From Phycisphaerae bacterium (GTDB lineage Bacteria; Planctomycetota; Phycisphaerae; UBA1845), in contig JAUIEW010000002.1 of the NCBI GenBank assembly GCA_030429365.1, positions 1-63,170 of the forward strand: a DNA stretch of 63,170 nt, read 5' to 3'. How positions within the stretch are numbered: position 1 is the stretch's first letter; each line of letters starts with the position of its first letter. The notes under the pieces were generated by a model that was not told the DNA's origin, searched no databases, and saw only the letters and a list, made by a program, of their open reading frames with translations. The position numbers and the translations under genes are program-made. Below are positions 8,150 through 52,025 of the stretch, piece by piece.

Positions 8150-9250
8150 TTAGTATTCCCACGACGTGATCGTATGCACGCACTGCGTGACAAGGTGGCC
8201 GACAAACAACGCGACCCCGGCGATCGCCCACCCATGCGGAATGCGCAGATACTTCTTATATCCAATCCAAAGCATCGCCCAGACCGACCCCAACGCCAAC
8301 CACAACATGATTGTTCCCAAACCGGCGTAATATGCGTACGCAATCGACGGCGCTCCGGAGCGCGCGTTTCTTCGCCAAGGCCAGTAATAAAGCGACGAAT
8401 CCAACACCCCTTCCAGCACGCACCAGACAGCCGTGCACAGACTCGCGAAAATCGTGGCATGCGCAAACACGCGAAGCACCTGTCGCCAACTGGCTTTGTA
8501 TTCCCGGTTGGATTGTACGAAGAGTATGAGCGTTAAGAACGTTGCGACCGACCACGTGGCGTAATCAATGAGGTCTGAGTTCTCATAACGAGCGCCATAC
8601 GTGAACCGAAATCGAACGGTGTCCGGATCGGCCATCCACTGCGCGATTTTGTTCATCAGCGGATCAACGCCAAGCGCGACGGCATGCCAGCCGCGGGCAA
8701 ACAACAACCATTGAACCATGACCAGGATCAAGAGGGGAATGACCCTGGGGGTATCGCTGCGCGAATAGGTGCGCCAAAGTCGAAACGGGCTGGTCGCACC
8801 CAACCAGAAAGTGACGGCAATCGACTTCAGCGGATCGGCAATCCAGCGATATTCGAACAGGTTGCTGGCTTTGCTGATCGCGGCATCGGTGACATCCTCC
8901 CAATCAAAGCTCACCCCGCATTCCGGGCACCGGTTCGTAGTCTGCCCGACCAGACGATAACCGCACTTGACGCAGCAGATCGCTTCGATCGGCAACTTCG
9001 CGACGTGCGTGTACCAAAGGTACTTGAATCGCTCACGGTTATTCTCGATCACGTGCCAACAAAGGGCATCCATGTCGATCTCGCTGCCACATTCCGAGCA
9101 GCGGTCCTGACCGTCTTCATGGATAACGTAATCGCAATTCGGACATCGCAACAATTCGCGATCGACCGCAACAATCTGCTCGATCATCGACTTCGACGGA
9201 TTGGCCATGTCGCTTGGGATGGGCGGGGTGGAATCGTGCAATGCGTCCAA
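8150..9250 (-). CDS. membrane protein with two N-terminal zinc ribbons
   Basis: 366 aa with CPNCDY..CSECG and CVKCGYRLVGQTTNRCPECG motifs followed by multiple TM helices. No enzymatic motif seen. Confidence 0.65.
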   Translation of the reverse strand: MDALHDSTPPIPSDMANPSKSMIEQIVAVDRELLRCPNCDYVIHEDGQDRCSECGSEIDMDALCWHVIENNRERFKYLWYTHVAKLPIEAICCVKCGYRLVGQTTNRCPECGVSFDWEDVTDAAISKASNLFEYRWIADPLKSIAVTFWLGATSPFRLWRTYSRSDTPRVIPLLILVMVQWLLFARGWHAVALGVDPLMNKIAQWMADPDTVRFRFTYGARYENSDLIDYATWSVATFLTLILFVQSNREYKASWRQVLRVFAHATIFASLCTAVWCVLEGVLDSSLYYWPWRRNARSGAPSIAYAYYAGLGTIMLWLALGSVWAMLWIGYKKYLRIPHGWAIAGVALFVGHLVTQCVHTITSWEY

Positions 9251-9492
9251 TACTCCAAATCTGTTTCACGACAGAAGCGAGCCGACAATCCGACGTGCCC
9301 GGCGAGGGATCGCAAGCAGTGACGACGCACGTCGGCGCCGAATGTATTTTAGTGACCAGACAGCACCAATGCACGAATTCGAAACGATGATTGAGGGATT
9401 TCGCCAATCAGCGGGCACGTTGTTGGTGTGCGGTATCGTCTTCTTGGGCGACAAGTGTCATTTGTGGTGGGACAATGCGATTGGGGAGAATC

Positions 9493-9972
9493 ATGAGGCG
9501 AAAGTTTCTGTCTGCGGTTGGCGTTGGTGGGGGCTGTTCGATGTTGGCGCTGGGCTGTTCGCTTGACGCCCGGGTGGACTTAGCCGCCGCGAGCGCGATG
9601 GACCAGTTGGCCGTCTCGATGGAAACCGTGGTCCGCGAATACCACACCGAAATCGAACGATCAGACGATGCGACGGAAGAAGCGGTGGTGGACGCATTCA
9701 TCGGTCGCGTGCGGCGCGATGTGTCGGACAACGCGCTGGTCGATTCGCATGGCGAAAAGTTTCGAATGGCAATGAAGCGGGTGCGCGACGATCGGGCGGT
9801 TGAAATGGCTCGCTACCATGCCGCCCTGGACAACGTCGGTCTCGTGCGCGAAGTGTCGCGGGGCTTGAAACGGTTGGCCGCCGAAAGCATGTCGTTCGAG
9901 GACGACGCCCGGCGGTATCTGTTCTCACTTCTTGAAAGCGCCCAAGCCGGGGCGACCACGCCGCAGTCCTAG
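9493..9972 (+). CDS. hypothetical lipoprotein
   Basis: I prefer the start at ATG 9493, preceded by ggggagaa. MRRKFLSAVGVGGGCSMLALGCS is a lipoprotein-type signal. The remainder is helical and charged. Confidence 0.55.
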   Translation: MRRKFLSAVGVGGGCSMLALGCSLDARVDLAAASAMDQLAVSMETVVREYHTEIERSDDATEEAVVDAFIGRVRRDVSDNALVDSHGEKFRMAMKRVRDDRAVEMARYHAALDNVGLVREVSRGLKRLAAESMSFEDDARRYLFSLLESAQAGATTPQS

Positions 9973-12914: not shown

Positions 12915-13150
12915 GATGTCCAATCCCAGCATATGGTAGTGTCCCCCTCTCGCCAAACCAAATCGCAACCCCCGACATCGACGCAAAATCACCACGCACG
13001 TAGCCAAGAACGCGTCCTACCGAAGCGATTTCCCAATTCGTTTCAGAAGACCCATGTCGATCGCAATAACTGTATGCGGGCCGCCCAATGCTCGGGGCAA
13101 AGAATCCGTGCCGGCGTCAACAGACAGTGTCTACCGGAAGGAGTGGACTG

Positions 13151-15289
13151 ATGCACAACATCAACCTGACCAACGAAGATTCCCTCGATCTCAATCGATT
13201 CCAAGCCACCCAGCCGCGACAACGTGTCGCACCCATGGTGGTGGGTATCTTGGCCGCCTTACTGATCGCCATGCCAGCCGCCGCACAACTCAGCTATACG
13301 TTCACTTCCGGACCAGGAGGCGACGGTTTCATATGGCCGCCATCCCCAACGGGCCTGCTGGATGGAAACTCCTTCCCAACACCCGACGACATTCACTTCT
13401 ACAACGACATTGGAAACAACCTGTTCTTCGACGACCAGTACCAGGTCGCCGGTAATGCAACGGGCATCTCCAGTGAGGCCATGTGGGGCAACCCAACTTC
13501 CTTGGGCTTTGGCACCATCGACTTCGATTTCTTCTTCTCCGGAACGCAGGACATTTCCTTCAACTTCGCTTGGTCGGTCGGTGGCGCCCCCGGAAATACG
13601 CCCGAATTCTTGACGATCTATGTCGAAGACATGCTGGGCCGCGCCATGGAAGTCTATTGGCCGCTCGACGATACGTTCACCGGTTTGGGCGGTTTCGACG
13701 GATACTCAGATCGCATCAGCCTCAACACCATTGACTTGTTCGATGACTACTTCAACGTCGATGGCGGCCCGTTTCAAGACATCGTCTACGTATCGATCTT
13801 CGTCGGTGACATTGACACGGGTGGCGGACCGTCCAGTGAATTCGCCATCGACAACTTTGACATCGACGGCGGAACCGGCGGTGGAGGCGAGGTGTTCCCG
13901 TCGGTCAACAATGGCGCCATTGACGTCACCGGAAGCACGCTGGGACGCACGTCCCTTCGAGGCGTCGGCAACTTTCTTGCGGGGCTTGAAGTCACCAACA
14001 GTGCAACCAGCAGCACGACCTTCTCGACCCAACTTCTGCCCGGCGGCGACCTTGCCGATGGCGGACAAGTCAACGGCGCGACGATCCTTGCCGGTCAGTC
14101 CGTCTTCACGCCCAATCTCGTTTCGATCGATCGATCACTTCCGTCGGCGTCATACGAAAGCGACCTGAGGGTCATCAACGATCAAAACGCCTCCGATCCA
14201 GACAATGACGTCACCATACTTATGCGACTGGCCGAAGCCCCCCTGCTCACCGCGCCCAGCCCGGTGGATGTGTCACTCGGCGAGAAGGTGACTCTCGCCA
14301 ACGCAGCCGCCCCCGCCAACGGACATCGCGCCAGTGTCGAAGTCACGGGGTCAAACGTCACCGGCCCCTTCAGTGTGACGGGGTACGATCTCGACACGCC
14401 CTGCAAACCCGGCGAGATGATCGAGGGAGATGCGACACTCGACCGATTCGGTCGCCTGTCGGGCAACTACAACGGCATGGTTTCCGTTTCGCTCGCGATG
14501 ACGTTCTACGTCAACGAGTTCAAGACGTTTCTCAGCAATGCGGAGCCCGTTTCAGACGAACAGTGGACTCTGGAGGCTACGCTCGCAGACACGAACGCCG
14601 ACAACGCACCCCATGATTCGCAGACGCCGCTGGGCCCGGGGCAGGTTGGGGTCAACAGCGCATCGACGGCTGCAACAATCGTTGGCGGAACCACGGGATT
14701 GACCGGAAACACTTCAATGACACTGGGGACGGCGCCTTCGGGATCGAATACCGGCGTCCTTCAACAGAGCGCAAGCGTCGGTTTCACAACAGCATCGCCC
14801 GTCTACGCCATACAGATGACCTACCGTGATGAGGACATCTGCCCATCGGTTACCGAATCCAATCTGCGCTTGCTGTACTTCAATAGCGGCGCGTCGGACT
14901 GGCAACTTGCGGTCAATGGCAACAGCGACGGCGGCTTGGGCGCGACATTCTTCGCAGGTTCGTTTGATGCTTTTGCAGCAACACTGGGCGGAGCGCCGTT
15001 GTCCACAGCGCTGGGGGCACATGGTCTCGACCCGATCAACAACCAAGTATGGGCGGTCGTCGACCATGAAGCGGCATTTGGAACCGGAGAGATCGGCCAA
15101 TCCTGCGGGATCAAAGGCGACCTCGACAACGACGGCGACGTGGACACCGACGACTACACCATCTGGAATGGATGCATCGAAGGCCCGAACGTCATCGTTG
15201 CGCCGGCGTGCTCTATTGCAGACTGCGACGGCGACCAGGATGTGGACTTGGCCGACTTTGCCCAATTCGCGTTCGGATTCGGCACCTAA
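13151..15289 (+). CDS. large secreted protein with C-terminal dockerin-like (EF-hand type) repeats
   Basis: I prefer ATG 13151, preceded by ggaaggag. Signal-like segment VVGILAALLIAMPAAAQ. The C-terminus GDLDNDGDVDTDDY...CDGDQDVDLADFAQF shows the dockerin type I repeat pattern. Confidence 0.7.
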   Translation: MHNINLTNEDSLDLNRFQATQPRQRVAPMVVGILAALLIAMPAAAQLSYTFTSGPGGDGFIWPPSPTGLLDGNSFPTPDDIHFYNDIGNNLFFDDQYQVAGNATGISSEAMWGNPTSLGFGTIDFDFFFSGTQDISFNFAWSVGGAPGNTPEFLTIYVEDMLGRAMEVYWPLDDTFTGLGGFDGYSDRISLNTIDLFDDYFNVDGGPFQDIVYVSIFVGDIDTGGGPSSEFAIDNFDIDGGTGGGGEVFPSVNNGAIDVTGSTLGRTSLRGVGNFLAGLEVTNSATSSTTFSTQLLPGGDLADGGQVNGATILAGQSVFTPNLVSIDRSLPSASYESDLRVINDQNASDPDNDVTILMRLAEAPLLTAPSPVDVSLGEKVTLANAAAPANGHRASVEVTGSNVTGPFSVTGYDLDTPCKPGEMIEGDATLDRFGRLSGNYNGMVSVSLAMTFYVNEFKTFLSNAEPVSDEQWTLEATLADTNADNAPHDSQTPLGPGQVGVNSASTAATIVGGTTGLTGNTSMTLGTAPSGSNTGVLQQSASVGFTTASPVYAIQMTYRDEDICPSVTESNLRLLYFNSGASDWQLAVNGNSDGGLGATFFAGSFDAFAATLGGAPLSTALGAHGLDPINNQVWAVVDHEAAFGTGEIGQSCGIKGDLDNDGDVDTDDYTIWNGCIEGPNVIVAPACSIADCDGDQDVDLADFAQFAFGFGT

Positions 15290-22278: not shown

Positions 22279-22884
22279 GTGAACGCGCCAACCGACGAAC
22301 AACTTCTTGCGTCACACCTCTCGGGCGACCCGCAAGCGTTCCGCACACTCGTCGAGCGCCACTCGACCGAACTCTATCAATTCGTCTATCGATTCACCAA
22401 CCGAAAATCGTCAGCAGAAGATGTCGTGCAAGATACCTTCATTCAGGTTCACCTCGCCGGTCAAAGTTTTGATACCAATCGGCGTTTCAAGCCCTGGCTC
22501 TTCACCATCGCTGCCAACAAAGCACGCGACCACCTGCGCAGTCGAACCCGCAAACGCGAAGTCCCGCTCGACGCCCAGGTCGGTGGTGAAGACGATGATG
22601 GCCAGCGCTTCCTCGACCTGCTTTCCGACGAAGTCACGTCGCCCACCGCCCAGCTCGAAGAAGCCGAGCAATCGAAATTCGTTCAACAGATCGTCGAGGA
22701 GATGCCCGCCCACCTCAGCGAAATCCTGATCCTCGCGTACTTCCACCGCTTCCCGTACCGCGACATCGCCGACATGCTCGACATCCCACTCGGCACCGTA
22801 AAGAGCCGGCTCCACGCAGCCGTCGCCCAATTCGGAACGCTATACCGCCAAAGAGCCGGCCCAGAATCCGACCCAACCGACTAA
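22279..22884 (+). CDS. RNA polymerase ECF-type sigma-70 factor
   Basis: Region 2 is AEDVVQDTFIQV...KPWLFTIAANKARDHLR. Region 4 is ILAYFHRFPYRDIADMLDIPLGTVKSRLH. Confidence 0.9.
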   Translation: MNAPTDEQLLASHLSGDPQAFRTLVERHSTELYQFVYRFTNRKSSAEDVVQDTFIQVHLAGQSFDTNRRFKPWLFTIAANKARDHLRSRTRKREVPLDAQVGGEDDDGQRFLDLLSDEVTSPTAQLEEAEQSKFVQQIVEEMPAHLSEILILAYFHRFPYRDIADMLDIPLGTVKSRLHAAVAQFGTLYRQRAGPESDPTD

Positions 22885-23052: not shown

Positions 23053-24042
23053 ATGAGTCAGGGTCCACTCGATGAGAATCAAAACATGATTGAGGACAGC
23101 ATTCTTCCGTACATCCTCGGGACGCTCTCCGAATCTGAGACCGCGTCCTTCGAATCGAAGCTCGCGTCCGACAACGAGCTGGCCAACAAGGTCGACGCTG
23201 CCCGGCGGGCGATCGCACCGCTCAATGCCTGGGAAGCCCCCGCGCCGCCGACCACCCTCGTCGACAACATCCTCATCCAAGCCGCCACCACGACACCGCT
23301 TGAGTACGTCGCCGCGTCGGCATCAATGACCCCAACAAGCCAAAACGCAACCGGACACCGAAACCGTTTCCGCCTCCGCGAGCTCATCGCCATCGCCGCG
23401 TGCATCGCGCTGATGGTCAGCCTGTACATCCCAGGCATGAGTAGGATTCGTCAGCAGCAACTGCAAGCCGCCTGCGAACTTAACATGGCCGGTTTCGGCA
23501 CGGGCGTCAGCGCTTACGCCAACGAGAACAATGGCAACCTGCCGAACATCGGCGCATCGCCCAACAGCAATTGGCTAAACGATCCGAATCGCCGTCACCT
23601 CCTTCCGGCGGTTCGGCATCGTTTGGTGCTCCCAAGCCAACTGATCTGCCCTGCCGCCGACGGCAGCATCGACGAAGAAGCCACGCTCAAGAACGTCGAA
23701 GAATTCCTGAAGCGAACCGATCTGCCGTTCTGGGCCGTCCCAAACGCCAACGGGCCCGTCCCGAAGATCAACATCCGCATCAACGTGCCACTGGCAGCCG
23801 ACGCCAACCCACTGTTTCAAAAGGGAAAATTCCACCGCGGCACCGATGGCACACTGACGCCAAACTCGCACACGCACGGCGGCAAAGGACAGAACGTCCT
23901 CTTCAATGACGGGTCAATCCGCTTCATCAAGACGCCAGTCCTCGATGAAAACCACGACAACATCTGGACGGCCAACAACATCGAAGACTACCAAGGCACC
24001 GAAGCCCAACAAAGCGCAACTGACGCCTTCTTAACCCCGTAA
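23053..24042 (+). CDS. putative anti-sigma factor fused to a DUF1559 / H-X9-DG-type (pseudopilin-associated) periplasmic domain
   Basis: It lies immediately downstream of the ECF sigma gene. The N-terminal cytoplasmic helix segment (ILPYILGTLSESETASFESKLASDNELA) is followed by one TM helix (LIAIAACIALMVSLYIP). The C-terminus ends HTHGGKGQNVLFNDGSIRFIK. Confidence 0.65.
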   Translation: MSQGPLDENQNMIEDSILPYILGTLSESETASFESKLASDNELANKVDAARRAIAPLNAWEAPAPPTTLVDNILIQAATTTPLEYVAASASMTPTSQNATGHRNRFRLRELIAIAACIALMVSLYIPGMSRIRQQQLQAACELNMAGFGTGVSAYANENNGNLPNIGASPNSNWLNDPNRRHLLPAVRHRLVLPSQLICPAADGSIDEEATLKNVEEFLKRTDLPFWAVPNANGPVPKINIRINVPLAADANPLFQKGKFHRGTDGTLTPNSHTHGGKGQNVLFNDGSIRFIKTPVLDENHDNIWTANNIEDYQGTEAQQSATDAFLTP

Positions 24043-24293: not shown

Positions 24294-24815
24294 TCAGTTT
24301 GATTCCTCATCCAATTCATCGTCAGAATCTCGGGGCGTCGCATCGCCAACCGAAACAATAGTCAGCGAAAACATCTCGCCTTCAATTTCGTCGCCCGCAA
24401 CGACCGGCAGACCAAAATACTCCGTCTCTCCATCCAGCTCGATCGCAAAGAGATACGGGACTCCAGTCACATTGTCTTCCAGTGGATCTGGACATGTTGT
24501 GAGGTTGATCGGGAATGAAAAATGGCAAACGGTCACCGTTGGAAATGTAAGTGACACTTGGCCCATGTCATCAGTAACGCCTTCGCCTTCATATCCGCGC
24601 CCAATATATGACGCGTCATCATTCGGCAAGTCTGGGTTAGTGAACGATCCGCGAAAGTCCCGCACGAATGTCACATTCGCCCCATTTGCGTCATCGCCAC
24701 CCGCTGTTGTGATTGCGAGTTCTACGACTTGCTCGGCTTCACCGCTAATGTAACTTTCAGGAATGCAACCAACGAGTGGCAGCATCAGGATCGCTCCAAA
24801 TAGTCGGGTTTTCAT
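24294..24815 (-). CDS. hypothetical lipoprotein
   Basis: MKTRLFGAILMLPLVGC lipobox. Acidic 173-aa protein with no family recognised. Confidence 0.55.
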   Translation of the reverse strand: MKTRLFGAILMLPLVGCIPESYISGEAEQVVELAITTAGGDDANGANVTFVRDFRGSFTNPDLPNDDASYIGRGYEGEGVTDDMGQVSLTFPTVTVCHFSFPINLTTCPDPLEDNVTGVPYLFAIELDGETEYFGLPVVAGDEIEGEMFSLTIVSVGDATPRDSDDELDEESN

Positions 24816-24857: not shown

Positions 24858-25658
24858 CTAATTCCGCCAGCCGGGCTCGCGCTTCTCCAAGAACGCCTTC
24901 AACCCCTCCTGCCCTTCATCCGAAGCCCGAAGCTTCGCGATATACTCCGTCATCGCCGCAAGCTTCGCATCGAAACCGTCACCCCGGGCAGTGCGAATAA
25001 TCTCCTTACACGCCGCCACCGCGCACGGGCCCGTCTCTTTGATCGCATCGGTAAGCTGACCCACCGTTTCATCCAACTCGTCAACCGTTTCCACCGTATC
25101 GGCCACAAGCCCGACGCGCTTCGCCTCAACCCCATCAAACCGCTCTGCGGTCAGCGCGTATCGCTGCACAGCCGACGCCTGCATCTTCTCTGTCAAAAAC
25201 GGCATGATGATCGCCGGGGCAATCCCCAACTTCACTTCGCTCAAACAAAACACCACGCGCTCCAGCGCGATCGACATATCGCAAGCGGCCACCAACCCGA
25301 CGCCACCGCCAAACGTCGCCCCATGCACCCGCGCGATCGTCGGCTTGGGACAACACCGAATCACATCCAGCATCGATGCCAACTGCCTCGCGTCCGCCAC
25401 GTTCTCCTCGAACGTGTAGTCCACCATCTTCTGCATCCACTTCAGGTCAGCCCCCGCGCAGAACGATTTTCCCTCGCCCGAAAGCACAATCGTCCGCACA
25501 TCGTCGCGCCGACCCAGTTCGCGAAACACGTTGGCTAGCTGCTCAATCACCTGTTCATTAAACGCATTGTGCAAGTCGGGCCGGCGAAGCTGCACATGCC
25601 CGACATGATCCGAAATGAGTTGTTCGACAAATACTTTCACGTAAACACCCGCAAGCAA
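24858..25658 (-). CDS. enoyl-CoA hydratase/isomerase family (methylglutaconyl-CoA hydratase-like)
   Basis: Crotonase fold motifs FCAGADLKWM and ARVHGATFGGGVGLVAACD. It is on the same strand as the MCCase beta gene. Confidence 0.85.
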   Translation of the reverse strand: MLAGVYVKVFVEQLISDHVGHVQLRRPDLHNAFNEQVIEQLANVFRELGRRDDVRTIVLSGEGKSFCAGADLKWMQKMVDYTFEENVADARQLASMLDVIRCCPKPTIARVHGATFGGGVGLVAACDMSIALERVVFCLSEVKLGIAPAIIMPFLTEKMQASAVQRYALTAERFDGVEAKRVGLVADTVETVDELDETVGQLTDAIKETGPCAVAACKEIIRTARGDGFDAKLAAMTEYIAKLRASDEGQEGLKAFLEKREPGWRN

Positions 25659-27728
25659 TTAGAGGTCATTGATGACCGACGCACTCGGTAGCGGAAACTC
25701 CGTGTGGACCACATCTCCAACCCGGTCTATGTTGACCTCGCCGATCTTTCCGGTGCGCCGCAAGTCGATCCACCGATGCCCTTCACCGAACAACGAATAG
25801 CGTCGTTGATGAATCACCTCGTTGAGTAGCGCTGCGTCGCTGGTCGCCCCCAGGTAATTGCCCAAGCCAGCCGCATTGCGAACGACGTTGATCGCGGCCA
25901 ACACTTCGTTGACGTCGGATCCGATCTGCGCCTCGGCGTAAATCAGGATCAACTCTTCGTTGCGAATGATCGGGAACCCGGACGTCATCGATCCGATCGT
26001 ATTGACTTGCCGTGTTCCAGATAATCCGTCGTGCGTCACCGGCACGGTCAAATCCGCCGACGCAATGTACATCCGCGTCTTGGAACTCGATCGCGTGTCG
26101 CCCACTTCTGCGTCCGCGACGAAGTCGGAATGAGCCGTATACAAATCCACGTCCGGCTCATAATACACAGGGTTCGGGGTATCGGCATCGTAGCTGAATG
26201 ATGGACCGGTCGTCATCAAGCCATTGATATTAAAGAATGAACCCGCGATGCCGGATATGGACCCGGCTTTATCCCCCTGATAAATCCGCACCCGTGCGGA
26301 TAGCGCCCGGTTGAACTGCCGAAACGTCGCCGGCGTCGCAAATGAGGTGAATCCATTGGGGAGATTGAATGCGAAACTCCCGCCACCATTCGTCAAGTTT
26401 GTCGCTCCTTCGTCCAGCAGGTCTGCGATCGTGTTCAGGCTGTCGGTGAGGTTTTCAAAGTTCGACGAAGGGTTTTGGCTGTCCAATGCCGACGGCGGCA
26501 AGATCCCATTGGTGTACTGATGATTCAGTGCCAGCAGGAGCGAATAGGCCTGCATGGTTCGCGCGTACCCAAGCACGCCGTTTTCCTGGTCAGCCGTCAG
26601 CGCCCCATCCGAATTCATCACCGCGTTGATCAAGGTCTGGCAGTGTCGCACCGCCCGATACCGCGCGACAAACGAATCCGTCACGAAATCGCTGTCTTCA
26701 TCCAGCATCGAGCCATTCTTACCGAGAAGCTCATCGGTGTATTCCGAGTCATCGCCATTGAGATTCCAATACTCTCGACCGACGATGCTGACCGTCTTGA
26801 TGTATGCCCCGAGATCATCTTTCACCTTGCTCTCGACATCTTCAGCCAGGTCACGAATCACGTCGAGCGTTGGCGCGTCGCACTGAACCGCGCTGCACGT
26901 CTCGTCCTGATTGAATTCCCCGCCCACCGCCAGACACTGATCCGCCTCGATCACTTCGCACGTCGCGTCCACAAAGCAGCAAGCCCCAAGCGGCTGCTCA
27001 CAATCCACCTCGATACAAAGCATGCCCTCATTGAGCGTCCCGCCAACACCCCCACACGCATCGGCATCGGAATCATCAACGCAAAGTCCGCTGGTCAAGC
27101 AACACGAACCCATCGCGGGCGCAGGTTGCTGGCATTCGACCGCATCGCAAGTAGCCCCCGCTTCAAATACACCATCAACCGTGTCGCACCCGTTGCTGTC
27201 GGCGTTCAGGCACGAACCATCCTCCAAACAGCATGCCCCAACTTGCGGGCCCGGTTGCGGGCAATCAACGTCGTCGCAGCTTTCGCCCTCATGAAACGTT
27301 CCGCTCTGCGCCGCGCAGTCGTCGGAATTGGAGTCTTCACACGCACCGTCAATCAAGCAGCAAGCGCCAACCGCCGGGCACGCGGTGTCGTCACACGATG
27401 CGCCATCGTTGAACGTACCATTCGCCGTGTCGCATTCGTCTGCCGTTACTTCCAAACAAGAACCGTCTTCCAGGCAGCACGCATGATCCGACGATGTTTC
27501 AGGGCACTGAAAATCGTCACAACTTTCGCCTTGATTGAATGTTCCGTTGGAGGTGCAGTCAGCCGCCACCGTCTCGATGCACGAACCATCGTCCTGACAG
27601 CACGCCCCCGTCGGTTCACTGGCCGGTGGCGTACAACCCGACCCCAACGTCATCATGAATGCGGTCAACACAACGGCTGCGAAATATCGAAACATACATT
27701 CGACTCCTTGCTCAAACACGTGGCCCAA
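25659..27728 (-). CDS. lipoprotein with six N-terminal Cys-rich repeats and a SusD/RagB-like C-terminal domain
   Basis: Lipobox MMTLGSGC, with an alternative start at 27695. The C-terminus NEVIHQRRYSLFGEGHRWIDLRRTG matches the conserved SusD/RagB C-terminal motif (..E.RRVEL.FEGHRWFDLRR). Confidence 0.7.
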   Translation of the reverse strand: MGHVFEQGVECMFRYFAAVVLTAFMMTLGSGCTPPASEPTGACCQDDGSCIETVAADCTSNGTFNQGESCDDFQCPETSSDHACCLEDGSCLEVTADECDTANGTFNDGASCDDTACPAVGACCLIDGACEDSNSDDCAAQSGTFHEGESCDDVDCPQPGPQVGACCLEDGSCLNADSNGCDTVDGVFEAGATCDAVECQQPAPAMGSCCLTSGLCVDDSDADACGGVGGTLNEGMLCIEVDCEQPLGACCFVDATCEVIEADQCLAVGGEFNQDETCSAVQCDAPTLDVIRDLAEDVESKVKDDLGAYIKTVSIVGREYWNLNGDDSEYTDELLGKNGSMLDEDSDFVTDSFVARYRAVRHCQTLINAVMNSDGALTADQENGVLGYARTMQAYSLLLALNHQYTNGILPPSALDSQNPSSNFENLTDSLNTIADLLDEGATNLTNGGGSFAFNLPNGFTSFATPATFRQFNRALSARVRIYQGDKAGSISGIAGSFFNINGLMTTGPSFSYDADTPNPVYYEPDVDLYTAHSDFVADAEVGDTRSSSKTRMYIASADLTVPVTHDGLSGTRQVNTIGSMTSGFPIIRNEELILIYAEAQIGSDVNEVLAAINVVRNAAGLGNYLGATSDAALLNEVIHQRRYSLFGEGHRWIDLRRTGKIGEVNIDRVGDVVHTEFPLPSASVINDL
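26868..27608 (-). repeat. six tandem ~40-aa Cys-rich coding repeats (G-x-CC-x3-G-x-C ... C ... G-x-F ... C-D ... C)
   Basis: Residues 41-287 of the SusD-like ORF: GACCQDDGSC.., HACCLEDGSC.., GACCLIDGAC.., GACCLEDGSC.., GSCCLTSGLC.., GACCFVDATC... Each unit has 6 Cys. Confidence 0.85.
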
Positions 27729-27739
27729 GAGCGCTGTCG

Positions 27740-29350
27740 CTACATTCGATAAACACTCTGCTTCGGTTCGGGCCAGGGACCGTTTAGACTGGCCGCGATA
27801 CCCAACGCCAAAACCATGCGCGTATCGACTGGGTCAATAATCCCATCATCCCACAACCGCGCCGAGCTGTAGTAGGCGCTACCTTCCGTCTCATACTTAT
27901 CCAGGATCGGCTTCATGAATTCGGCTTGCTCGTCGGCATTCATCGCCGGTTCGCCCTTGGCCTCAAGCTGATCCTGCTTCACCGTCAAGAGTACGTTCGC
28001 GGCTTGCTCACCGCCCATCACGCTGATCCGCGCATTGGGCCACATCCAAAGCTGCCTCGGTCCATACGCCCGCCCGCACATGCCATAGTTGCCCGCGCCG
28101 TACGAACCCCCGATCACCACCGTAAATTTCGGCACGCAAGCATTGGAGACTGCGGCGACCATCTTCGCGCCGTCTTTGGCGATCCCTCCGGCTTCAAACT
28201 GCCGTCCCACCATAAACCCGGTGATATTTTGCAGGAACACGAGTGGCGTGCGCCGCTGATTGCAGAGCTCAATGAAGTGTGCGGCTTTCTGCGCGCTTTC
28301 AGAAAAGAGCACGCCGTTGTTCGCAAGAATCCCAACCGGGTATCCCCAGATGTGCGCAAACCCGGTGACCAATGTCGAGCCATACAGCGCTTTGAACTCC
28401 TGAAACTTACTGCCATCGACAATGCGCGCGATGATCTCGCGCACGTCGTAAGGTTTGCGAATGTTCTTTTGAATGATGCCGTAAATCTCGCTCGCATCGT
28501 AGCGCGGTTCTTCAACCGGAATCGTGCGCACCGGCATCTTATGAACGTGACCAAGGTGGCTGACGATCCGCCGCGTGATCGCCAACGCATCTTCATCGTT
28601 AACCGCAAGGTGATCCGCAACGCCCGACGTTCGACAATGCACGTCAGCCCCACCGAGTTCTTCCGCCGACACAACTTCACCCGTCGCGGCTTTAACGAGC
28701 GGTGGACCGCCAAGGAAAATCGTCCCCTGCCCTTTCACGATGACGGCTTCATCGCTCATCGCTGGCACATAAGCCCCGCCAGCCGTACACGAACCCATCA
28801 CCACCGCCACCTGTGGAATGCCAGCCGCCGACATCTGCGCCTGGTTATAGAAGATCCGCCCGAAGTGCTCCTTGTCGGGAAACACGTCGGCTTGCAGCGG
28901 CAGAAACGCCCCGCCCGAATCAACGAGGTACACGCAAGGCAGATGATTTTCGCGGGCGATCTCCTGCGCCCGAAGGTGCTTCTTCACCGTCACCGGAAAA
29001 TACGTACCGCCTTTGACCGTCGCATCGTTCGCCACGATCACACACTCGCGACCTTCGATGCAGCCAATCCCGGTCACAATGCCAGCCGCCGGCGCGCCCC
29101 CGTCATAAAGCCCATGCGCCGCCAACGAACTGATTTCCAGAAACGGTGTGTCCGCATCGGTCAGAAGATCAATGCGATCGCGCACGAACAACTTCCCGCG
29201 GCTTCGATGCCGTTCGACCAACTTCTCCCCGCCGCCCTGCTTGACCGCACTCAGATGCGCTTTCAAATCCGAGACCTTGGCTTCAAGATCCGACTTGTTT
29301 TCCGCAAATTCCGCCGACGACGTATCAATTGCTGTTGAGAGTATTTCCAT
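27740..29350 (-). CDS. methylcrotonoyl-CoA carboxylase beta (carboxyltransferase) subunit
   Basis: 536 aa. [25 protein letters not shown]...[28 protein letters not shown] is characteristic of MCCase-beta / acyl-CoA carboxyltransferases. Confidence 0.88.
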
Positions 29351-44644: not shown

Positions 44645-47236
44645 ATGATTCCTCGAAATCTGATGAACCGCACACGATGGGCGTGCGCTGTCGGCTTACT
44701 GCTTGTCGGCGCGATCGTTGAAGTCGGGTGCGATGGCGTTGTACCACCCAACGGCGGTGGGGGCAGTGGCGATGGCAACGCCACGATCAGGGGTACCGTG
44801 ACCAACGATGCCACCGATTCGGCCCTCGCGGGCGCCAAGGTCATCATTGGCGACAGCGCCGAGGTCACCACGGACGACGCGGGTGCATATACCGCCGACG
44901 TACCTGCCGGAGTTTATACGGTTACTTTCGAGAACGATTTCTTCATGCCCGTTGAGCGATCTGTCGCGGTCAATGGGGGTGAGTCCGTCACCGTAAATGC
45001 CGCCTTGACGCCCTCACAAGCCGTCAAGATTGTTACCTCCATGGAAGGGTCAGCCGAACCCGGCGAATCCATCACGATCGCTGCCGCCGTCGAAGTCCTC
45101 GACGGATCGACAACCGTGCAAGGATTTTCGTGGGCCCAGTCGAACAGCGTGGACGTCTCCATCGCTGGCGGATCCACCGATACTGCCACCGTCACTCTGC
45201 CCGACGCAGCCGCCTATAAAGCAGAATTGATGAAGGTGCTCCGCGAACCGCCGATCACTGCCGACCAGCTTCCGGAAAATGTTCCGTTGCCCGACAGTGA
45301 AGAATTTCCCGGTGGACTACCTGATCGATTCCAGGTTGTCGGCCCCAACCCGTTCGCCATCGAAGAAACCGGACACGTCGCGCTGACGCTGACGGTTGAG
45401 ACTTCTTCCGGCGATATCACCGAACACGTCGACATCCACACCGAGTTGCCGTGGCGCCCGGCGCCGGGCATCCGCAATGTTCCGATCGAGGTCCCCGTCC
45501 TCCTCAGTGGCAAGATGCAGGACTCGTATGATTGGGCTATGTCCACGCCACCCGGATCAAGCACCTCGTTGATCGATGCGACCACACGTGAACCCTACTT
45601 CACTCCGGACGTCGCTGGCTTGTACCGTGTCACCGTGACCAACATGACCGGCGAGATGGATGAAGATGTCGTCATGGAAATCCGTGCCGGCACGTGGGAA
45701 GGTGTCATCACGGGACAGGATGCGGACGGCCTGCCCGTCGCAGCCAACTGCACCATCTGCCACAACGATGGCATCGCCAGAGATCTGTTTACGCCCTGGG
45801 CGCGCACTGGCCACGCGACGATCTTCTCCGACAGCATCGACACCAACGACCACTACGGCGAACAGTGTTTCGTCTGCCACACCGTTGGCTACGATCTGCG
45901 CGCTAACAATGGCGGCGTCGATGAAGTCGAAGACTTCGAAGACTTCCTCGCGGCTGGGTTGCTCGCCAACCCCGGGGACAACTGGGATCAAGTCGTCGAC
46001 GAGTTCCCAGCCACCGCGCAGATGGCCAACGTCCAGTGCGAAAGCTGCCATGGTCCGCAGCGGGGTGGCGGAGCGCACACACAAGGCGAACCCAGGTTGA
46101 GCCTGTCGTCCAACGTCTGTGCAACCTGCCACGGCGAACCGTTGCGTCATGCACGATTCCAGCAGTGGCAACTCAGCGGCCACGCCAACTATGAATTGGC
46201 CATCGACGAAGGCGAAAACGGAAACTGCGCTCGCTGCCACACGGCCAACGGCTTCCTCGCCTGGCTGCCGATCCTGTTGGATGACGATCCCAATACCGAT
46301 CCGCTGGACAACATCGAAATCACCTGGACAGCCGACGAAACCGAACCGCAGACCTGCGTGGTCTGTCACGATCCGCACAACATCGGCACCGTCAGCGGCA
46401 GCGAAACCAATGCAACCGTTCGCATCTCGGGCGACACGCCGCCGCTCATTGCCGGCTTCCAAGTGTTCGGAGCCGGTCGCGGCGCGCTCTGCATGACTTG
46501 CCACAACTCACGTCGCGGTTTGCGCAACGATGATAACTTCGATGAGTTCGCCATGACGTCAGAAGCAGGACGCGCTCCTCACGGTTCGGCACAAGCCGAC
46601 GTGCTCATGGGTGAAAACGCATTCCTCGTCGAGGTCGGAATTCGCGGGGCGCACTCGTTCGTTGAGGATACGTGCGTCGCATGCCATATGGTGGAGACGC
46701 CTCCGCCAGACGTTCTGTCATACAATCTCGGCGGCACCAACCATACGTTCTTTGCATCCAAGAATGTCTGCGCTTCCTGCCACACCGAGATCCCGACAAG
46801 TGACAACATCGAAATCGCATTCAACGCCACGAGCGACCAACTCAAACTCCTGGTCGAAGAAGCGATTCTCAACCTGATCTCCGAGCAGGAATTGTTGGGT
46901 AATTCGATCGACCTGGGCGGAGAAGCCACACTCACTGACGAAACGCCAATATCAAACATTGATTTCGGTTCATACCACGGTCAACAGGCCATCACCGTCA
47001 CGCTGACTGATTCCACGGTGATCGGACCAGTCACCATGTCCAGCGTCATGGTCTTCGGGCCCGGCAATGTCGAGCTTGGCCGACTCTATGACTTCGCGGA
47101 CGCTCGACTGATCAAAGCCGGTTGGAACTGGAACCTCGGAAACAACGACGGCAGTAAAGCCGCCCACAACCCATCCTTCGTGTTCGGGTTCCTCGATGCA
47201 TCGATCGACGCATTGAACGAACTCAAATCCGAATAG
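44645..47236 (+). CDS. multiheme c-type cytochrome (9 CXXCH) with N-terminal carboxypeptidase-regulatory-like domain
   Basis: The CXXCH motifs are CTICH, CFVCH, CESCH, CATCH, CARCH, CVVCH, CMTCH, CVACH and CASCH. The N-terminus has a signal peptide, then GTVTNDATDSALAGAKVIIGD..AGAYTADVPAGVYTVTFE. Confidence 0.85.
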   Translation: MIPRNLMNRTRWACAVGLLLVGAIVEVGCDGVVPPNGGGGSGDGNATIRGTVTNDATDSALAGAKVIIGDSAEVTTDDAGAYTADVPAGVYTVTFENDFFMPVERSVAVNGGESVTVNAALTPSQAVKIVTSMEGSAEPGESITIAAAVEVLDGSTTVQGFSWAQSNSVDVSIAGGSTDTATVTLPDAAAYKAELMKVLREPPITADQLPENVPLPDSEEFPGGLPDRFQVVGPNPFAIEETGHVALTLTVETSSGDITEHVDIHTELPWRPAPGIRNVPIEVPVLLSGKMQDSYDWAMSTPPGSSTSLIDATTREPYFTPDVAGLYRVTVTNMTGEMDEDVVMEIRAGTWEGVITGQDADGLPVAANCTICHNDGIARDLFTPWARTGHATIFSDSIDTNDHYGEQCFVCHTVGYDLRANNGGVDEVEDFEDFLAAGLLANPGDNWDQVVDEFPATAQMANVQCESCHGPQRGGGAHTQGEPRLSLSSNVCATCHGEPLRHARFQQWQLSGHANYELAIDEGENGNCARCHTANGFLAWLPILLDDDPNTDPLDNIEITWTADETEPQTCVVCHDPHNIGTVSGSETNATVRISGDTPPLIAGFQVFGAGRGALCMTCHNSRRGLRNDDNFDEFAMTSEAGRAPHGSAQADVLMGENAFLVEVGIRGAHSFVEDTCVACHMVETPPPDVLSYNLGGTNHTFFASKNVCASCHTEIPTSDNIEIAFNATSDQLKLLVEEAILNLISEQELLGNSIDLGGEATLTDETPISNIDFGSYHGQQAITVTLTDSTVIGPVTMSSVMVFGPGNVELGRLYDFADARLIKAGWNWNLGNNDGSKAAHNPSFVFGFLDASIDALNELKSE

Positions 47237-48882: not shown

Positions 48883-51540
48883 TCAGACGTCGAGATTCTG
48901 CGCGTTGATCGCGTTCTCTTCGATGAAGCGGCGACGCTCTTCGACGCTGTCACCCATCAGCACGTGGAACATGCGATCGGCTTCCTGTGCATCGAGTGCC
49001 AACTGCTCGGCATCGTCGGGATCATCGGTGATGGTCACGCGGCGCAGCGTTCGCTTGGAACGATCCATGGTGGTTTCCCACAGTTCCTCCGCGTTCATTT
49101 CGCCGAGACCTTTGAAGCGCTTGAGCGTAATGCCGCTGCCGCCCAGACGGCGAACGCCAGCCAACACGTCGGCGAGATTGTCGAGTTCGTTGGGAGCATG
49201 TTCCCCCTGCCTCAACAAGTATCTCGCGGGCGTCAGTTCACCGGTGACCAATTGCTCGCGGGCCGCGAAGTAATCTTCGATATCGACCTGCATATCCTTC
49301 AAGCGCTTAATCAGCGAATCGAGCACACGACACTCCGACAACTCGTGGCGAACGATGTAGGTGTCTGAAAGTGCATCGCCTTCTTCGTCGCCATTGTTCG
49401 AACGGGCAACAGCCATATGCCGCGCTTCGATCAGATCAACGCGTTCAACTTTTTGCGCCAGATCGTTGCGATAGGCGGTCAAGGCGGCTTCATCGTGGAA
49501 GAAGCGCCGCTCCGCAACCGCATCATCTTCGCTATGAATTTCGGCGAAAATCGTGGGAAGTTGGCCGGCTTCGCCGCGATGATTCTGAACGATCGATTTG
49601 AAATCGATGCCGCGCCGCTCGAGGAACTGACGGTGCTGGTCGATTCCATCCAAAATTTCAAGCAGTTTGCGCAGTTCGTCGCCCTGAATCTCGCGATCCG
49701 CAGCATTCCCGCCCGAGATATCGCGAATCAGCAGCGTTGTTTCATCCAGGCCAAGATCGGTGAGCATGCCATTCATCACCGACTCGTTGAGAACGTACTG
49801 CTCCTTCTTACCGCGCTTCAGCAGATAGAGCGGCGGCTGAGCGATGTACACGCGCCCTTCTTCAATCAAAGGCCGCATGTGCCGGAACAGGAACGTCAAC
49901 AGCAGCGTGCGAATGTGGCTGCCGTCAACGTCGGCGTCCGTCATGATGATCAGCTTGTCGTAACGCCGTTTGGCCACGTCGAATTCATCTTTGCCGATAC
50001 CGCAGCCCATCGCCTTGATGATGTGCGCGATCTCGTCGTGCGACAGCATCTTGTCGATGCGCGCCTTTTCGACGTTTAAGATTTTACCCTTGAGCGGCAG
50101 GATCGCCTGCGTTCGCGAATCGCGCCCCTGCTTGGCGCTGCCGCCAGCTGAATCACCTTCGACGAGATAAATCTCGGTGCCTTCCGCACTCTTTGAGCTG
50201 CAATCCCAGAGCTTTCCGGGCAATCCGCCCGTGCTCATCACACTCTTGCGGGCAAGGCCGCGGGCCTTCCGCGCGGCTTCTCGTGCCTGCGCTGCATTCA
50301 CCCCGCGCTGCACGATTTTCTTCGCGTCGGCTGGGTTCTCTTCGAGGAAGTTGCGAAGCTGCTCGTTAACCGTCTGCTGCACAAACGTCTCGACTTCCGG
50401 ATTGAGCAAACGCACCTTGGTCTGCGATTCGAACTGCGGATTTGGCACTTTCACACTGATGACAGCCGTCAAGCCTTCGCGCCAATCGTCGCCCGACGGA
50501 ATCACTGAACCCTTCACCAGGTTGTTCTTTTTCGCGTAGTTGTTGGCCACGCGCGTCAGCGCACTCTTGAACGCCGACATATGCATGCCGCCGTCGATGT
50601 TCTTGATGTTGTTGGCAAACGCGAGAATGTTCTCGGTGTAGCTGTCGGAATATTGCAACGCAATATCACACGCCAGGCCCTGCTTGGGGTCTTCGGCTTT
50701 CAGCTTGATCACGTCGCGGTGGATCGGTTCAGCCCCACCAGCCAGGTGCGAAACAAACTGTTTGATGCCGTCGTCAAAACAGAACGACATCTCCTTGCCC
50801 GACGTTTCATCCAAGACCTCGATGCTGAGGCCTTCGTTCAGATACGCCAACTCGCGAAGCCGCACACCCAGCGTATCGAGCTTGAACACAATCTCAGGGA
50901 AAATCTGCGGATCTGGCGCAAACTCGATGCGCGTCCCGCTCTTGGACGTCTCGCCAACCACCGAAAGTTCGCGGGTGACGTCGCCGCGCTCGAAACGCAT
51001 CGAATGGACCTTCCCGTCACGTTCAACGGTGACTTCCATCCACTCGGCCAGCGCGTTCACCACACTGACGCCGACGCCATGCAATCCACCCGAAACCTTG
51101 TACGCACTTTGGTCGAACTTACCGCCCGAGTGCAGCACGGTCATCACCACCTCAAGCGCCGGCTTGCCGTTGAGCGCCGGGTTGGCGTTGTTTTTCATCG
51201 GACCGACGGGAATGCCGCGGCCATTGTCAACGACGGTGCAACTGCCATCGGCGTTGAGCTTCACAAGGATCTTCGTGCAGTACCCAGCCATCGCTTCGTC
51301 GATCGCATTGTCGACGAGTTCATAAATCAAATGGTGAAGACCGTTCGTCCCGGTACCGCCAATGTACATCGCGGGGCGTTTGCGGACGGCTGCCAGCCCC
51401 TCCAGCACCGTGATCTGACTTTCGTCATAGTCAGCCGCCTTCCCCTTCGCCGGCGGGTTTGCCGCATCAGTCGGCGCAGGGTCGCTGGATGGAACCGAAG
51501 TCGTCTCGATCGGGCCTGGATGTTTCGCTGCTTCACTCAT
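48883..51540 (-). CDS. gyrB: DNA gyrase subunit B
   Basis: GHKL N-terminus LEGLAAVRKRPAMYIGG...LVYELVDNAIDE, Toprim EIYLVEGDSAGGSAKQGRD and C-terminal KGLGEMN. A ~170-aa proteobacterial-type insert is present. I prefer the start at ATG 51540. The track's TTG at 51627 would give a TTGA overlap with the DUF721 gene. Confidence 0.95.
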   Translation of the reverse strand: MSEAAKHPGPIETTSVPSSDPAPTDAANPPAKGKAADYDESQITVLEGLAAVRKRPAMYIGGTGTNGLHHLIYELVDNAIDEAMAGYCTKILVKLNADGSCTVVDNGRGIPVGPMKNNANPALNGKPALEVVMTVLHSGGKFDQSAYKVSGGLHGVGVSVVNALAEWMEVTVERDGKVHSMRFERGDVTRELSVVGETSKSGTRIEFAPDPQIFPEIVFKLDTLGVRLRELAYLNEGLSIEVLDETSGKEMSFCFDDGIKQFVSHLAGGAEPIHRDVIKLKAEDPKQGLACDIALQYSDSYTENILAFANNIKNIDGGMHMSAFKSALTRVANNYAKKNNLVKGSVIPSGDDWREGLTAVISVKVPNPQFESQTKVRLLNPEVETFVQQTVNEQLRNFLEENPADAKKIVQRGVNAAQAREAARKARGLARKSVMSTGGLPGKLWDCSSKSAEGTEIYLVEGDSAGGSAKQGRDSRTQAILPLKGKILNVEKARIDKMLSHDEIAHIIKAMGCGIGKDEFDVAKRRYDKLIIMTDADVDGSHIRTLLLTFLFRHMRPLIEEGRVYIAQPPLYLLKRGKKEQYVLNESVMNGMLTDLGLDETTLLIRDISGGNAADREIQGDELRKLLEILDGIDQHRQFLERRGIDFKSIVQNHRGEAGQLPTIFAEIHSEDDAVAERRFFHDEAALTAYRNDLAQKVERVDLIEARHMAVARSNNGDEEGDALSDTYIVRHELSECRVLDSLIKRLKDMQVDIEDYFAAREQLVTGELTPARYLLRQGEHAPNELDNLADVLAGVRRLGGSGITLKRFKGLGEMNAEELWETTMDRSKRTLRRVTITDDPDDAEQLALDAQEADRMFHVLMGDSVEERRRFIEENAINAQNLDV

Positions 51541-51623
51541 CGTTTGTTCAGTATCGCTACCGCTGGAAATCGTTGCATTGCCGTACGTGACACCTGCCGT
51601 ACAGGATATCTGGCGTACGAATC

Positions 51624-52025
51624 TCAATCAGGAATGGTCGTCTGGAACGTCGCCCCATCCGTCCCCAACTCGAACCGAATTCGCCGGATCAACGTTCCCC
51701 GACACACCCGTTCGAGATGCTCGCGAAGCTGCAAATGCCACTTCGTTCGAATGACGCTATGATACCGCGCATCGGCTGGATTCACCAATATAACCACGCT
51801 GCCAGCCGACATTCCCCCATAACGGCAGTACCGCCGAAATTCGTCGTCCACGACGGCTGATATCGCCTCAAAAACCGCCACTTCATGTGACGCCGTTCGG
51901 CCCACGTCAGCCGACATCTTCGCCGCCAACGAACCGATCGATTTTGTGCGCGTTCGCGTCTGCCGATTGGCGTGACACCAGTGCAACTGACTGGGGGAAA
52001 TGTCGTCTCTGGGTTGTTCAGCCAA
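51624..52025 (-). CDS. DUF721 (DciA-like) protein
   Basis: 133 aa lying between dnaN and gyrB, which is the usual DUF721 position. The segment GSVVILVNPADARYHSVIRTKWHLQLREHLERV resembles DUF721 core. Confidence 0.65.
   Translation of the reverse strand: MAEQPRDDISPSQLHWCHANRQTRTRTKSIGSLAAKMSADVGRTASHEVAVFEAISAVVDDEFRRYCRYGGMSAGSVVILVNPADARYHSVIRTKWHLQLREHLERVCRGTLIRRIRFELGTDGATFQTTIPD

Follow-up and report, generated by a model that had tools for sequence, protein, structure and literature searches.

The window analysed here, the whole 63,170-nt stretch at the start of contig JAUIEW010000002.1 of a Phycisphaerae bacterium (assembly GCA_030429365.1), carries a gene for a SusD/RagB-like lipoprotein between two genes of leucine catabolism (liu), one for the β subunit of 3-methylcrotonyl-CoA carboxylase (MCCβ) and one for an enoyl-CoA hydratase. 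The gene encodes a true SusD/RagB-family protein with a complete fold, consisting of a TPR-like helical scaffold and a C-terminal region, and it has no SusC gene beside it. We consider it probable that a horizontally acquired SusD has been repurposed here as a SusC-independent, stalk-mounted, ligand-binding lipoprotein, which travels as a passenger in the liu operon. Feature coordinates are given in Table 1, and residue numbers of the SusD-like protein refer to its longest open reading frame (ORF) of 689 amino acids (aa).

To our knowledge, SusD has been treated as acting only together with SusC. The susC/susD pair serves as a marker for polysaccharide utilisation loci (PULs) in genome surveys. 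SusD has been described as exclusive to Bacteroidetes (PMC11573768). In the literature on SusD or TonB-dependent receptors in Planctomycetes and Phycisphaerae, we found no description of planctomycete SusD homologs.

An earlier note, made from the DNA sequence alone, had recognised the protein as SusD/RagB-like by its C-terminal motif, and the likeness extends well beyond this motif. The Pfam family SusD_RagB (PF07980), whose gathering score is 23.1, matched with 53.2 bits (E = 4.7e-14), and a phmmer search of PDB sequences returned SusD-like proteins only, down to 1.9e-8. In an AlphaFold model based on an alignment of 17 sequences, mean pLDDT was 82.6, and the block means from residue 290 onwards were mostly >85. 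A Foldseek comparison of residues 288-689 with the PDB gave SusD/RagB-family proteins in 50 of the 50 top matches listed, all with a probability of 1.0. These 50 listed matches had target template modelling (TM) scores of 0.35-0.63 over 423-594 aligned columns and included 3jq1, 3snx, BT1762, RagB and NanU; the closest solved structures to the domain are 3jq1, 3snx (BT_1439) and 3otn. Because the Pfam match and the whole-domain fold agree, the assignment rests on the whole domain (288-689) and not merely on the terminal motif. The protein shares with the SusD/RagB lipoproteins of Bacteroidota the whole ~400-residue fold, the hallmark C-terminal motifs and a predicted N-terminal signal peptide with a Cys, and the identity of its SusD domain reaches 61% with a SusC-linked Bacteroidota SusD.

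Relatives of the protein were sought in one genome per GTDB species. At least 591 relatives were found, and the best 80 of these were analysed. They comprised 76 proteins from Bacteroidota (Saprospiraceae, Flavobacteriaceae, Cytophagales and Chitinophagales) and four with Planctomycetota-type or other labels. A SusC ortholog was located upstream of SusD in 75 of the 76 Bacteroidota loci, and the remaining locus was cut at a contig end; that is, SusC was present in all 75 loci that could be assessed. The SusC gene nearly always ended at most a few hundred nt before the SusD match, and its product was 46-76% identical to the SusC of locus L005. When ORFs were clustered over the 76 Bacteroidota loci (L013-L088), only SusC and SusD recurred. 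The next most frequent neighbours were housekeeping genes, encoding polyprenyl synthetase, AspRS and RND efflux components. No carbohydrate-active enzyme (CAZyme) or other conserved neighbour of the SusC/SusD pair was found in those loci, which leaves no clue to a substrate. The Bacteroidota subfamily is a widespread stand-alone SusC/SusD pair outside any PUL, and its members in Saprospiraceae, Flavobacteriaceae and Cytophagales (e.g. P0018 in L005/L013) are the nearest Bacteroidota relatives of the window protein.

In contrast, no SusC was found within up to 10 kb on each side of the SusD-like gene in L001, L002, L004, L006, L007, L008, L011 and L012, nor by tblastn with a cognate SusC in the 63-kb window. 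Six ORFs of the window encode at least 600 aa. Five of them have unrelated Pfam domains (topoisomerase I, GyrB, a multihaem cytochrome, topoisomerase VI subunit B and a TPR protein); for the sixth (13088..15289), Pfam returned nothing significant. The remark of the earlier note that the window lacks a TonB-dependent receptor is therefore borne out by both the tblastn search and the Pfam check of large ORFs. Moreover, the nine Planctomycetota-type loci have no recurrent partner gene apart from a generic extracytoplasmic function (ECF) sigma factor, present in four of the nine, and the large unannotated neighbours of the gene (509 aa in L008, 791 aa in L006 and 733 aa in the window) have no transporter-like domains. 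Clustered CAZymes were also absent: the neighbours in the window are the liu genes, a sigma/anti-sigma pair and small unassigned ORFs. Hence the window protein has the sequence and the fold of SusD/RagB proteins, and with neither an adjacent SusC nor CAZymes it counts, in operational terms, as part of neither a SusC/SusD pair nor a PUL.

A query with the SusC of the sister lineage (L013 type) gave 120 best orthologs at 59-71% identity, with the self-match excluded, and every named one was from Bacteroidota. The closest, P0122 (71%), forms part of a normal SusC-SusD pair on a contig with 42% GC. A co-transferred SusC left no sign among these 120 orthologs, a search narrower than a genome-wide test. 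In L008, the ORF directly upstream of the SusD-like gene (8351-9880, plus strand) has collagen-repeat and Peptidase_S74 (endosialidase chaperone) domains, pointing to a fibre-like protein of the cell surface.

The history of the domain was studied with a neighbour-joining tree on corrected identity distances, covering 90 sequences and 385 columns of the SusD domain, with one distant homolog as root. The nine Planctomycetota-type sequences were monophyletic, they were nested 12 nodes deep within the Bacteroidota sequences, and their sister was the L013 protein, which is SusC-linked; all three features were recovered in 100 of 100 bootstraps. The simplest account is that one horizontal transfer took place from Bacteroidota to an ancestor within the Planctomycetota, probably related to Phycisphaerae, either without SusC or with a later loss of SusC. 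GC content was 56% (0.564) in the window and 54-71% in the clade loci, compared to 42% in two measured Bacteroidota loci. Because the GC content of the SusD-like gene (0.57) equals the window average, the transfer was not recent. None of the clade members bears a database name.

The host of the window is a planctomycete. The MCCβ homologs named by taxon were labelled Planctomycetes, Planctomycetota, Phycisphaerae or Phycisphaerales, except for one labelled Vampirovibrio. Relatives of the locus were labelled as Phycisphaerae bacterium or Planctomycetaceae bacterium, and one as Alphaproteobacteria bacterium. The window furthermore contains the DUF1579 family, which we take to be typical of planctomycetes. 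The closest relative, L009 (JANQQE010000021.1, GCA_028285105.1), is the one deposited as 'Alphaproteobacteria bacterium'; its SusD-like protein is 82% identical and it shares ~20 kb of synteny with the window. This label is probably wrong, as gene content and MCCβ relatives point to Planctomycetota/Phycisphaerae.

The 689-aa ORF described in the earlier note is real and present in the list of ORFs, but its likely start is the ATG at 27695 (M12) and not the TTG at 27728, because an AAGGAG motif lies 8 nt upstream of this ATG and the 99%-identical protein P0001 has 678 aa. Similarly, the GTG at 25640 is the most likely start of the hydratase, since its orthologs have 260 aa. With these starts, the gap between MCCβ and the SusD-like gene is 44 nt, and that between the SusD-like stop codon and the hydratase start is 18 nt. 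The distance of 11 nt to MCCβ and the abutment of stop and start codons (25659/25658) proposed earlier were artefacts of using the longest ORFs. Neither gap contained promoter- or terminator-like sites in a scan with the sigma-70 consensus, which may not fit this phylum. The SusD-like gene is probably transcribed from the liu operon promoter and is predicted to be co-transcribed with its neighbours.

Read from M12, the protein begins with MFRYFAAVVLTAFMMTLGSGC, a hydrophobic signal peptide that ends in a lipobox-like Cys. The lipobox LGSGC noticed earlier indeed closes this signal peptide, although its residue at -3 departs from the canonical Leu. Most clade members likewise have a hydrophobic N-terminus with a Cys after it, as judged from sequence only. 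The protein is therefore predicted to be exported, lipidated at Cys32 and extracytoplasmic.

The Cys-rich repeat region of ~250 aa reported earlier, which separates the predicted lipid anchor from the SusD domain, was resolved into six tandem modules (residues 43-283). Each module has the pattern CC-x5-C-x7/8-C-x12-C-x4-C, which can also be written as GACCxxDGSC...C...G.F....C....C. There are 36 Cys residues within residues 43-283, versus only one in the remaining 400 residues. AlphaFold modelled the six-module array with a mean pLDDT of 86.5, with most modules as a β-hairpin, a short helix and a β-strand. The modules matched no Pfam family at E up to 1 and no PDB sequence at E up to 10, and Foldseek returned no significant match to the array (best E = 0.07, TM at most 0.19); its weak best matches were ADAM17 and follistatin-type domains. 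The modules resemble follistatin-like and disintegrin/Cys-rich regions in being short, tandem, Cys-rich and extracellular, without a significant match to them.

In every member of the planctomycete clade, the signal peptide is separated from the SusD domain by at least one module. The forms of 480-502 aa have one, P0006 and P0007 have three, and the window protein, P0002 and P0004 have six, such that the spacer between anchor and domain varies from 40 to 250 residues. In contrast, modules were absent from the Bacteroidota members, in which the SusD domain begins right after the lipoprotein Cys. A second class of matches in the homology search consisted of large secreted proteins sharing the module, several of them from Phycisphaerae or Eisenbacteria. 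These proteins (P0046, P0057, P0061, P0064, P0079, P0090, P0105 and P0109) carry sorting tails of the type IX secretion system (T9SS), or SdrD_B, FlgD-Ig, invasin D3, multicopper-oxidase or DUF1028 domains, and in none of them was the module covered by a Pfam family. The module looks like an undescribed, mobile, disulfide-rich extracellular domain, and may represent a new domain family. From the Cys pattern, the modules are putatively disulfide-bonded and would act as a stalk or spacer.

Some members of the family are probably mis-started. The ORF in L006 that contains P0007 (8792-11581, plus strand) runs ~1.2 kb upstream of the called start, and both P0005 and P0007 begin without a signal peptide. 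Such members may carry more Cys-rich modules than annotated.

The flanking genes identify the operon. Close homologs of the MCCβ gene product are named methylcrotonoyl-CoA carboxylase. The hydratase is a crotonase whose best NCBIfam match is of the gamma-carboxygeranoyl-/methylglutaconyl-CoA hydratase type, at a score below the family cutoff. The flanks thus correspond to genes of liuB and liuC type, ordered and oriented as is usual for the liu operon (liuB for MCCβ, liuC for methylglutaconyl-CoA hydratase, liuD for MCCα and liuE for 3-hydroxy-3-methylglutaryl-CoA (HMG-CoA) lyase), as in L170. In L170, with 79% MCCβ identity, MCCβ is followed after 34 nt by the hydratase and then by biotin carboxylase (MCCα), the biotin carboxyl carrier protein and HMG-CoA lyase, with no insert. 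The window differs from this arrangement in that a 2-kb gene for a putatively exported protein splits liuB and liuC, and in its lineage the hydratase is no longer followed by MCCα and HMG-CoA lyase.

We surveyed MCCβ in 80 metagenome loci, of which 71 had enough downstream sequence. The hydratase was located directly downstream of MCCβ in 32 of these 71 loci, the closest locus having 76% identity and a 44-nt gap, and SusD was found at none of the 80. Because relatives keep an intact liuB-liuC pair, the uninterrupted pair is the ancestral state and the SusD-like gene is the insert. The order MCCβ, SusD-like gene, hydratase, together with ~20 kb of synteny, occurred only in L001/L009, L002/L010 and L003, where the SusD-like protein is 82% (L001/L009) and 69% (L002/L010) identical to that of the window. 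Six other clade members were found in unrelated contexts without MCCβ or hydratase nearby, and none of the Bacteroidota members has liu neighbours at this position. The synteny comparison proposed in the earlier note therefore showed that the insertion between liuB and liuC is lineage-specific and that the three-gene order is not ancestral. That note had also offered a repurposed lipoprotein and an insertion into a catabolic operon as alternatives. The data support both, and the two do not compete.

The 465-aa gene after MCCβ in L171 is not SusD-like. Downstream of the hydratase in the window, at a distance of 42 nt and on the same strand, lies a gene for a 173-aa acidic protein (24294-24815, minus strand) with the lipobox-like N-terminus MKTRLFGAILMLPLVGC. 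Pfam gave no match to this protein. As L001 and L002 lack it although they are otherwise syntenic, it may be a second lineage-specific insertion at the liu operon.

Selection was assessed from the ratio of nonsynonymous to synonymous substitutions (dN/dS). Against two syntenic orthologs, dN/dS was 0.04-0.09 (about 0.06) for the whole SusD-like gene and for each domain separately, compared to 0.045 for MCCβ and 0.11-0.14 for the hydratase; these values are approximate owing to saturated dS. The SusD-like ORF is intact in all relatives. Judging from these substitution patterns, both domains are under purifying selection and the gene is functional.

We propose the following scenario. SusD would have been acquired once from Bacteroidota by the ancestor of a small Planctomycetota clade. 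In this recipient clade the gene has no adjoining SusC, has gained one to six of the six-Cys modules and has settled in differing genomic places. In the window lineage it lies in the short gap between MCCβ and the hydratase, probably as a passenger without a role in leucine catabolism. The protein would be exported and lipidated at Cys32, which would tether it to the membrane in an oxidising extracytoplasmic compartment, and its six disulfide-stabilised modules would form a stalk keeping the SusD domain away from the membrane. There the SusD domain would bind a glycan or other macromolecule without serving as the lid of a SusC barrel. A bolder version holds that a SusD-fold protein works here without any SusC at all, as a surface receptor on a stalk of a previously undescribed module that feeds the planctomycetes' own macromolecule uptake; we put this forward tentatively and regard it as somewhat doubtful.

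Several points weigh against this proposal. The search for SusC covered the 63-kb window and flanks of at most 10 kb, and an unlinked SusC-type or other TonB-dependent partner is possible. The context of the SusD-like gene, and even that of the Bacteroidota SusC/SusD pair, points to no ligand. Lipidation, localisation and disulfide formation are predictions from the protein sequence. The tree is a neighbour-joining tree with a single distant root, the dS values behind dN/dS are saturated, and the sigma-70 consensus of the promoter scan may not apply to this phylum. Taxon labels are those given by submitters to metagenome-assembled genomes (MAGs), and the closest relative is labelled Alphaproteobacteria. 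Finally, sites conserved in Bacteroidota are largely retained in the clade, perhaps because the protein still requires a surface for binding a partner.

This last point bears on the main rival explanation, in which the protein is a conventional SusD that still acts as the lid of a SusC-type TonB-dependent transporter encoded elsewhere in the genome. Among 76 Bacteroidota proteins, 77 alignment columns were at least 90% conserved, and 58 of these 77 keep the same residue in the planctomycete clade. Together with the 61% identity to a SusC-linked protein, the strong purifying selection and the restriction of our search to window and flanks instead of whole genomes, this retention speaks for an unlinked SusC. 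However, the other 19 columns have changed or vary within the clade, and ~11 of these are concentrated in two relaxed loop segments (residues 327-347 and 410-422). In fifteen columns the whole clade shares a residue that is rare in Bacteroidota. This pattern would agree with one interaction surface having been lost while the fold and most of the functional surfaces were kept. Furthermore, SusC adjoins SusD in 75 of 75 assessable donor loci versus 0 of 9 recipient loci, all named sequences of the 120 best SusC homologs belong to Bacteroidota with the closest in a normal pair, and a spacer that varies between 40 and 250 residues would suit a barrel-hinged lid poorly. We therefore consider a distant SusC partner unlikely.

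Alternatively, the protein could serve cell-surface adhesion or structure, with the TPR-like SusD scaffold on its stalk used for attachment or protein contacts, e.g. to algal surfaces or particles. This differs from a role in ligand capture only in the events after binding. It would agree with the sharing of the module with proteins that bear SdrD_B, invasin D3 and FlgD-Ig domains or T9SS tails, with the lack of a CAZyme or transporter recurring beside the gene, and with the collagen-repeat/S74-chaperone fibre-like protein that adjoins the homolog in L008. Yet every characterised SusD-fold protein among the listed structural matches is a ligand-binding component of uptake systems, which makes an adhesive role distinctly improbable.

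A role in leucine/isovalerate catabolism, such as the sensing or capturing of branched-chain substrates by a functional unit of the three genes, would explain their tight spacing of 44 and 18 nt on the same strand without intergenic signals, and the conservation of the gene order in three relatives. It would not explain why six other clade members reside in unrelated contexts, nor why L170 and 32 of the 71 other assessable MCCβ loci keep the pair adjacent with no insert. Moreover, leucine is degraded in the cytoplasm, a poor match for a protein with a signal peptide and 36 Cys residues in its stalk. A catabolic function is therefore very improbable. Scarcely credible is a decaying relic of transfer or an artefact of MAG binning or assembly, for instance a planctomycete bin that has picked up a piece of Bacteroidota DNA. 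In its favour, SusD has been described as confined to Bacteroidetes (PMC11573768), and MAGs make up the majority of the relatives. Against it, the ORF is intact in all relatives with dN/dS of ~0.06, and the GC content of the gene (0.57) agrees with that of the window (0.564) instead of the 42% measured in two Bacteroidota loci. Conserved planctomycete synteny surrounds the gene on contigs of 364 kb, 666 kb and 5.5 Mb, and the gene has an in-frame fusion with a module that is typical of proteins ascribed to Phycisphaerae. A pseudogene or contamination was rejected on account of the intact ORFs, dN/dS, host-like GC content and long-contig synteny.

Compared to known systems, the clade proteins differ from Bacteroidota SusD in lacking an adjacent SusC, in their Planctomycetota host, in the one to six modules after the anchor Cys and in the two relaxed loops. 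Unlike SusD proteins of Bacteroidota PULs, the window gene resides inside a liu operon and not in a polysaccharide utilisation locus. Stand-alone surface glycan-binding lipoproteins (SGBPs, e.g. SusE/SusF) have β-sandwich or Ig-like folds and are encoded in PULs beside SusC/D. The proposed capture of ligands by a lipid-anchored extracytoplasmic protein without a lid role would resemble them in function; SGBPs, however, do not have the SusD fold and are encoded next to SusC/D.

SusD, so far seen solely as the lid of a transporter, may thus have another role here. Its conservation in another phylum under purifying selection, the lack of an adjacent SusC and the new N-terminal architecture together suggest that evolution can put the SusD domain to new use as a binding module acting on its own. 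If true, a SusC-free function would make this the first SusD outside a SusCD complex, and would offer a molecular handle on polymer capture by planctomycetes. Planctomycetes are important marine polymer degraders, and their uptake machinery is poorly understood. A candidate surface-binding protein of known fold provides an experimentally tractable entry to this machinery. The locus is also a clean example of a foreign gene settled inside a housekeeping catabolic operon, and the analysis exposes a widespread six-Cys extracellular module without coverage in family databases.

Table 1. Position of the SusD-like gene, its parts and its flanking genes in the 63,170-nt window.
Feature	Position	Strand	Remarks
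SusD-like lipoprotein gene	25659..27695	-	678 aa from ATG at M12; longest ORF reaches TTG at 27728 (25659..27728, 689 aa)
Shine-Dalgarno-like AAGGAG	27704..27709	-	8 nt 5' of the ATG; read directly off the sequence
Signal peptide with lipobox-like LGSGC at its end	27633..27695	-	Cys32 in 689-aa numbering; predicted from sequence
Six tandem Cys-rich modules	26874..27611	-	~41 residues and six Cys each; recognised by Cys pattern; putative disulfide-bonded stalk
Complete SusD/RagB-fold domain	25662..26867	-	Residues 288-689; AlphaFold model and Foldseek matches
Pfam SusD_RagB (PF07980) stretch	25734..26003	-	Residues 576-665; 53.2 bits; includes QRRYSLFGEGHRWIDLRRTG
MCCβ gene (3-methylcrotonyl-CoA carboxylase β, carboxyltransferase)	27740..29350	-	536 aa; Pfam Carboxyl_trans, 513 bits
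Enoyl-CoA (methylglutaconyl-CoA-type) hydratase gene	24858..25640	-	Pfam ECH_1, 165 bits; probable GTG start at 25640

Elsewhere in the window, an ECF sigma factor gene (22279-22884, plus strand) is followed by a gene for a 329-aa protein with an anti-sigma-like N-terminus (23053-24042, plus strand). The C-terminus of the latter protein, HGGKGQNVLFNDGSIRF, resembles the HX9DG motif of planctomycete DUF1559-type proteins, with no Pfam match, and the pair is conserved in L001 and L002. An 863-aa protein (44645-47236, plus strand), which has a CarboxypepD_reg domain at its N-terminus as well as MtrC/MtrF-like and c7-type multihaem cytochrome domains, may serve in extracellular electron transfer. 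Adjacent genes encode subunits B (55221-57221, plus strand; Topo-VIb_trans) and A (57276-58463, plus strand; TOP6A/Spo11 Toprim) of topoisomerase VI, an enzyme of archaeal/eukaryotic type. They lie near dnaA (53521-54852), dnaN (52058-53155) and gyrB (48883-51627), and because of the presence of these three genes the window is probably near the replication origin.

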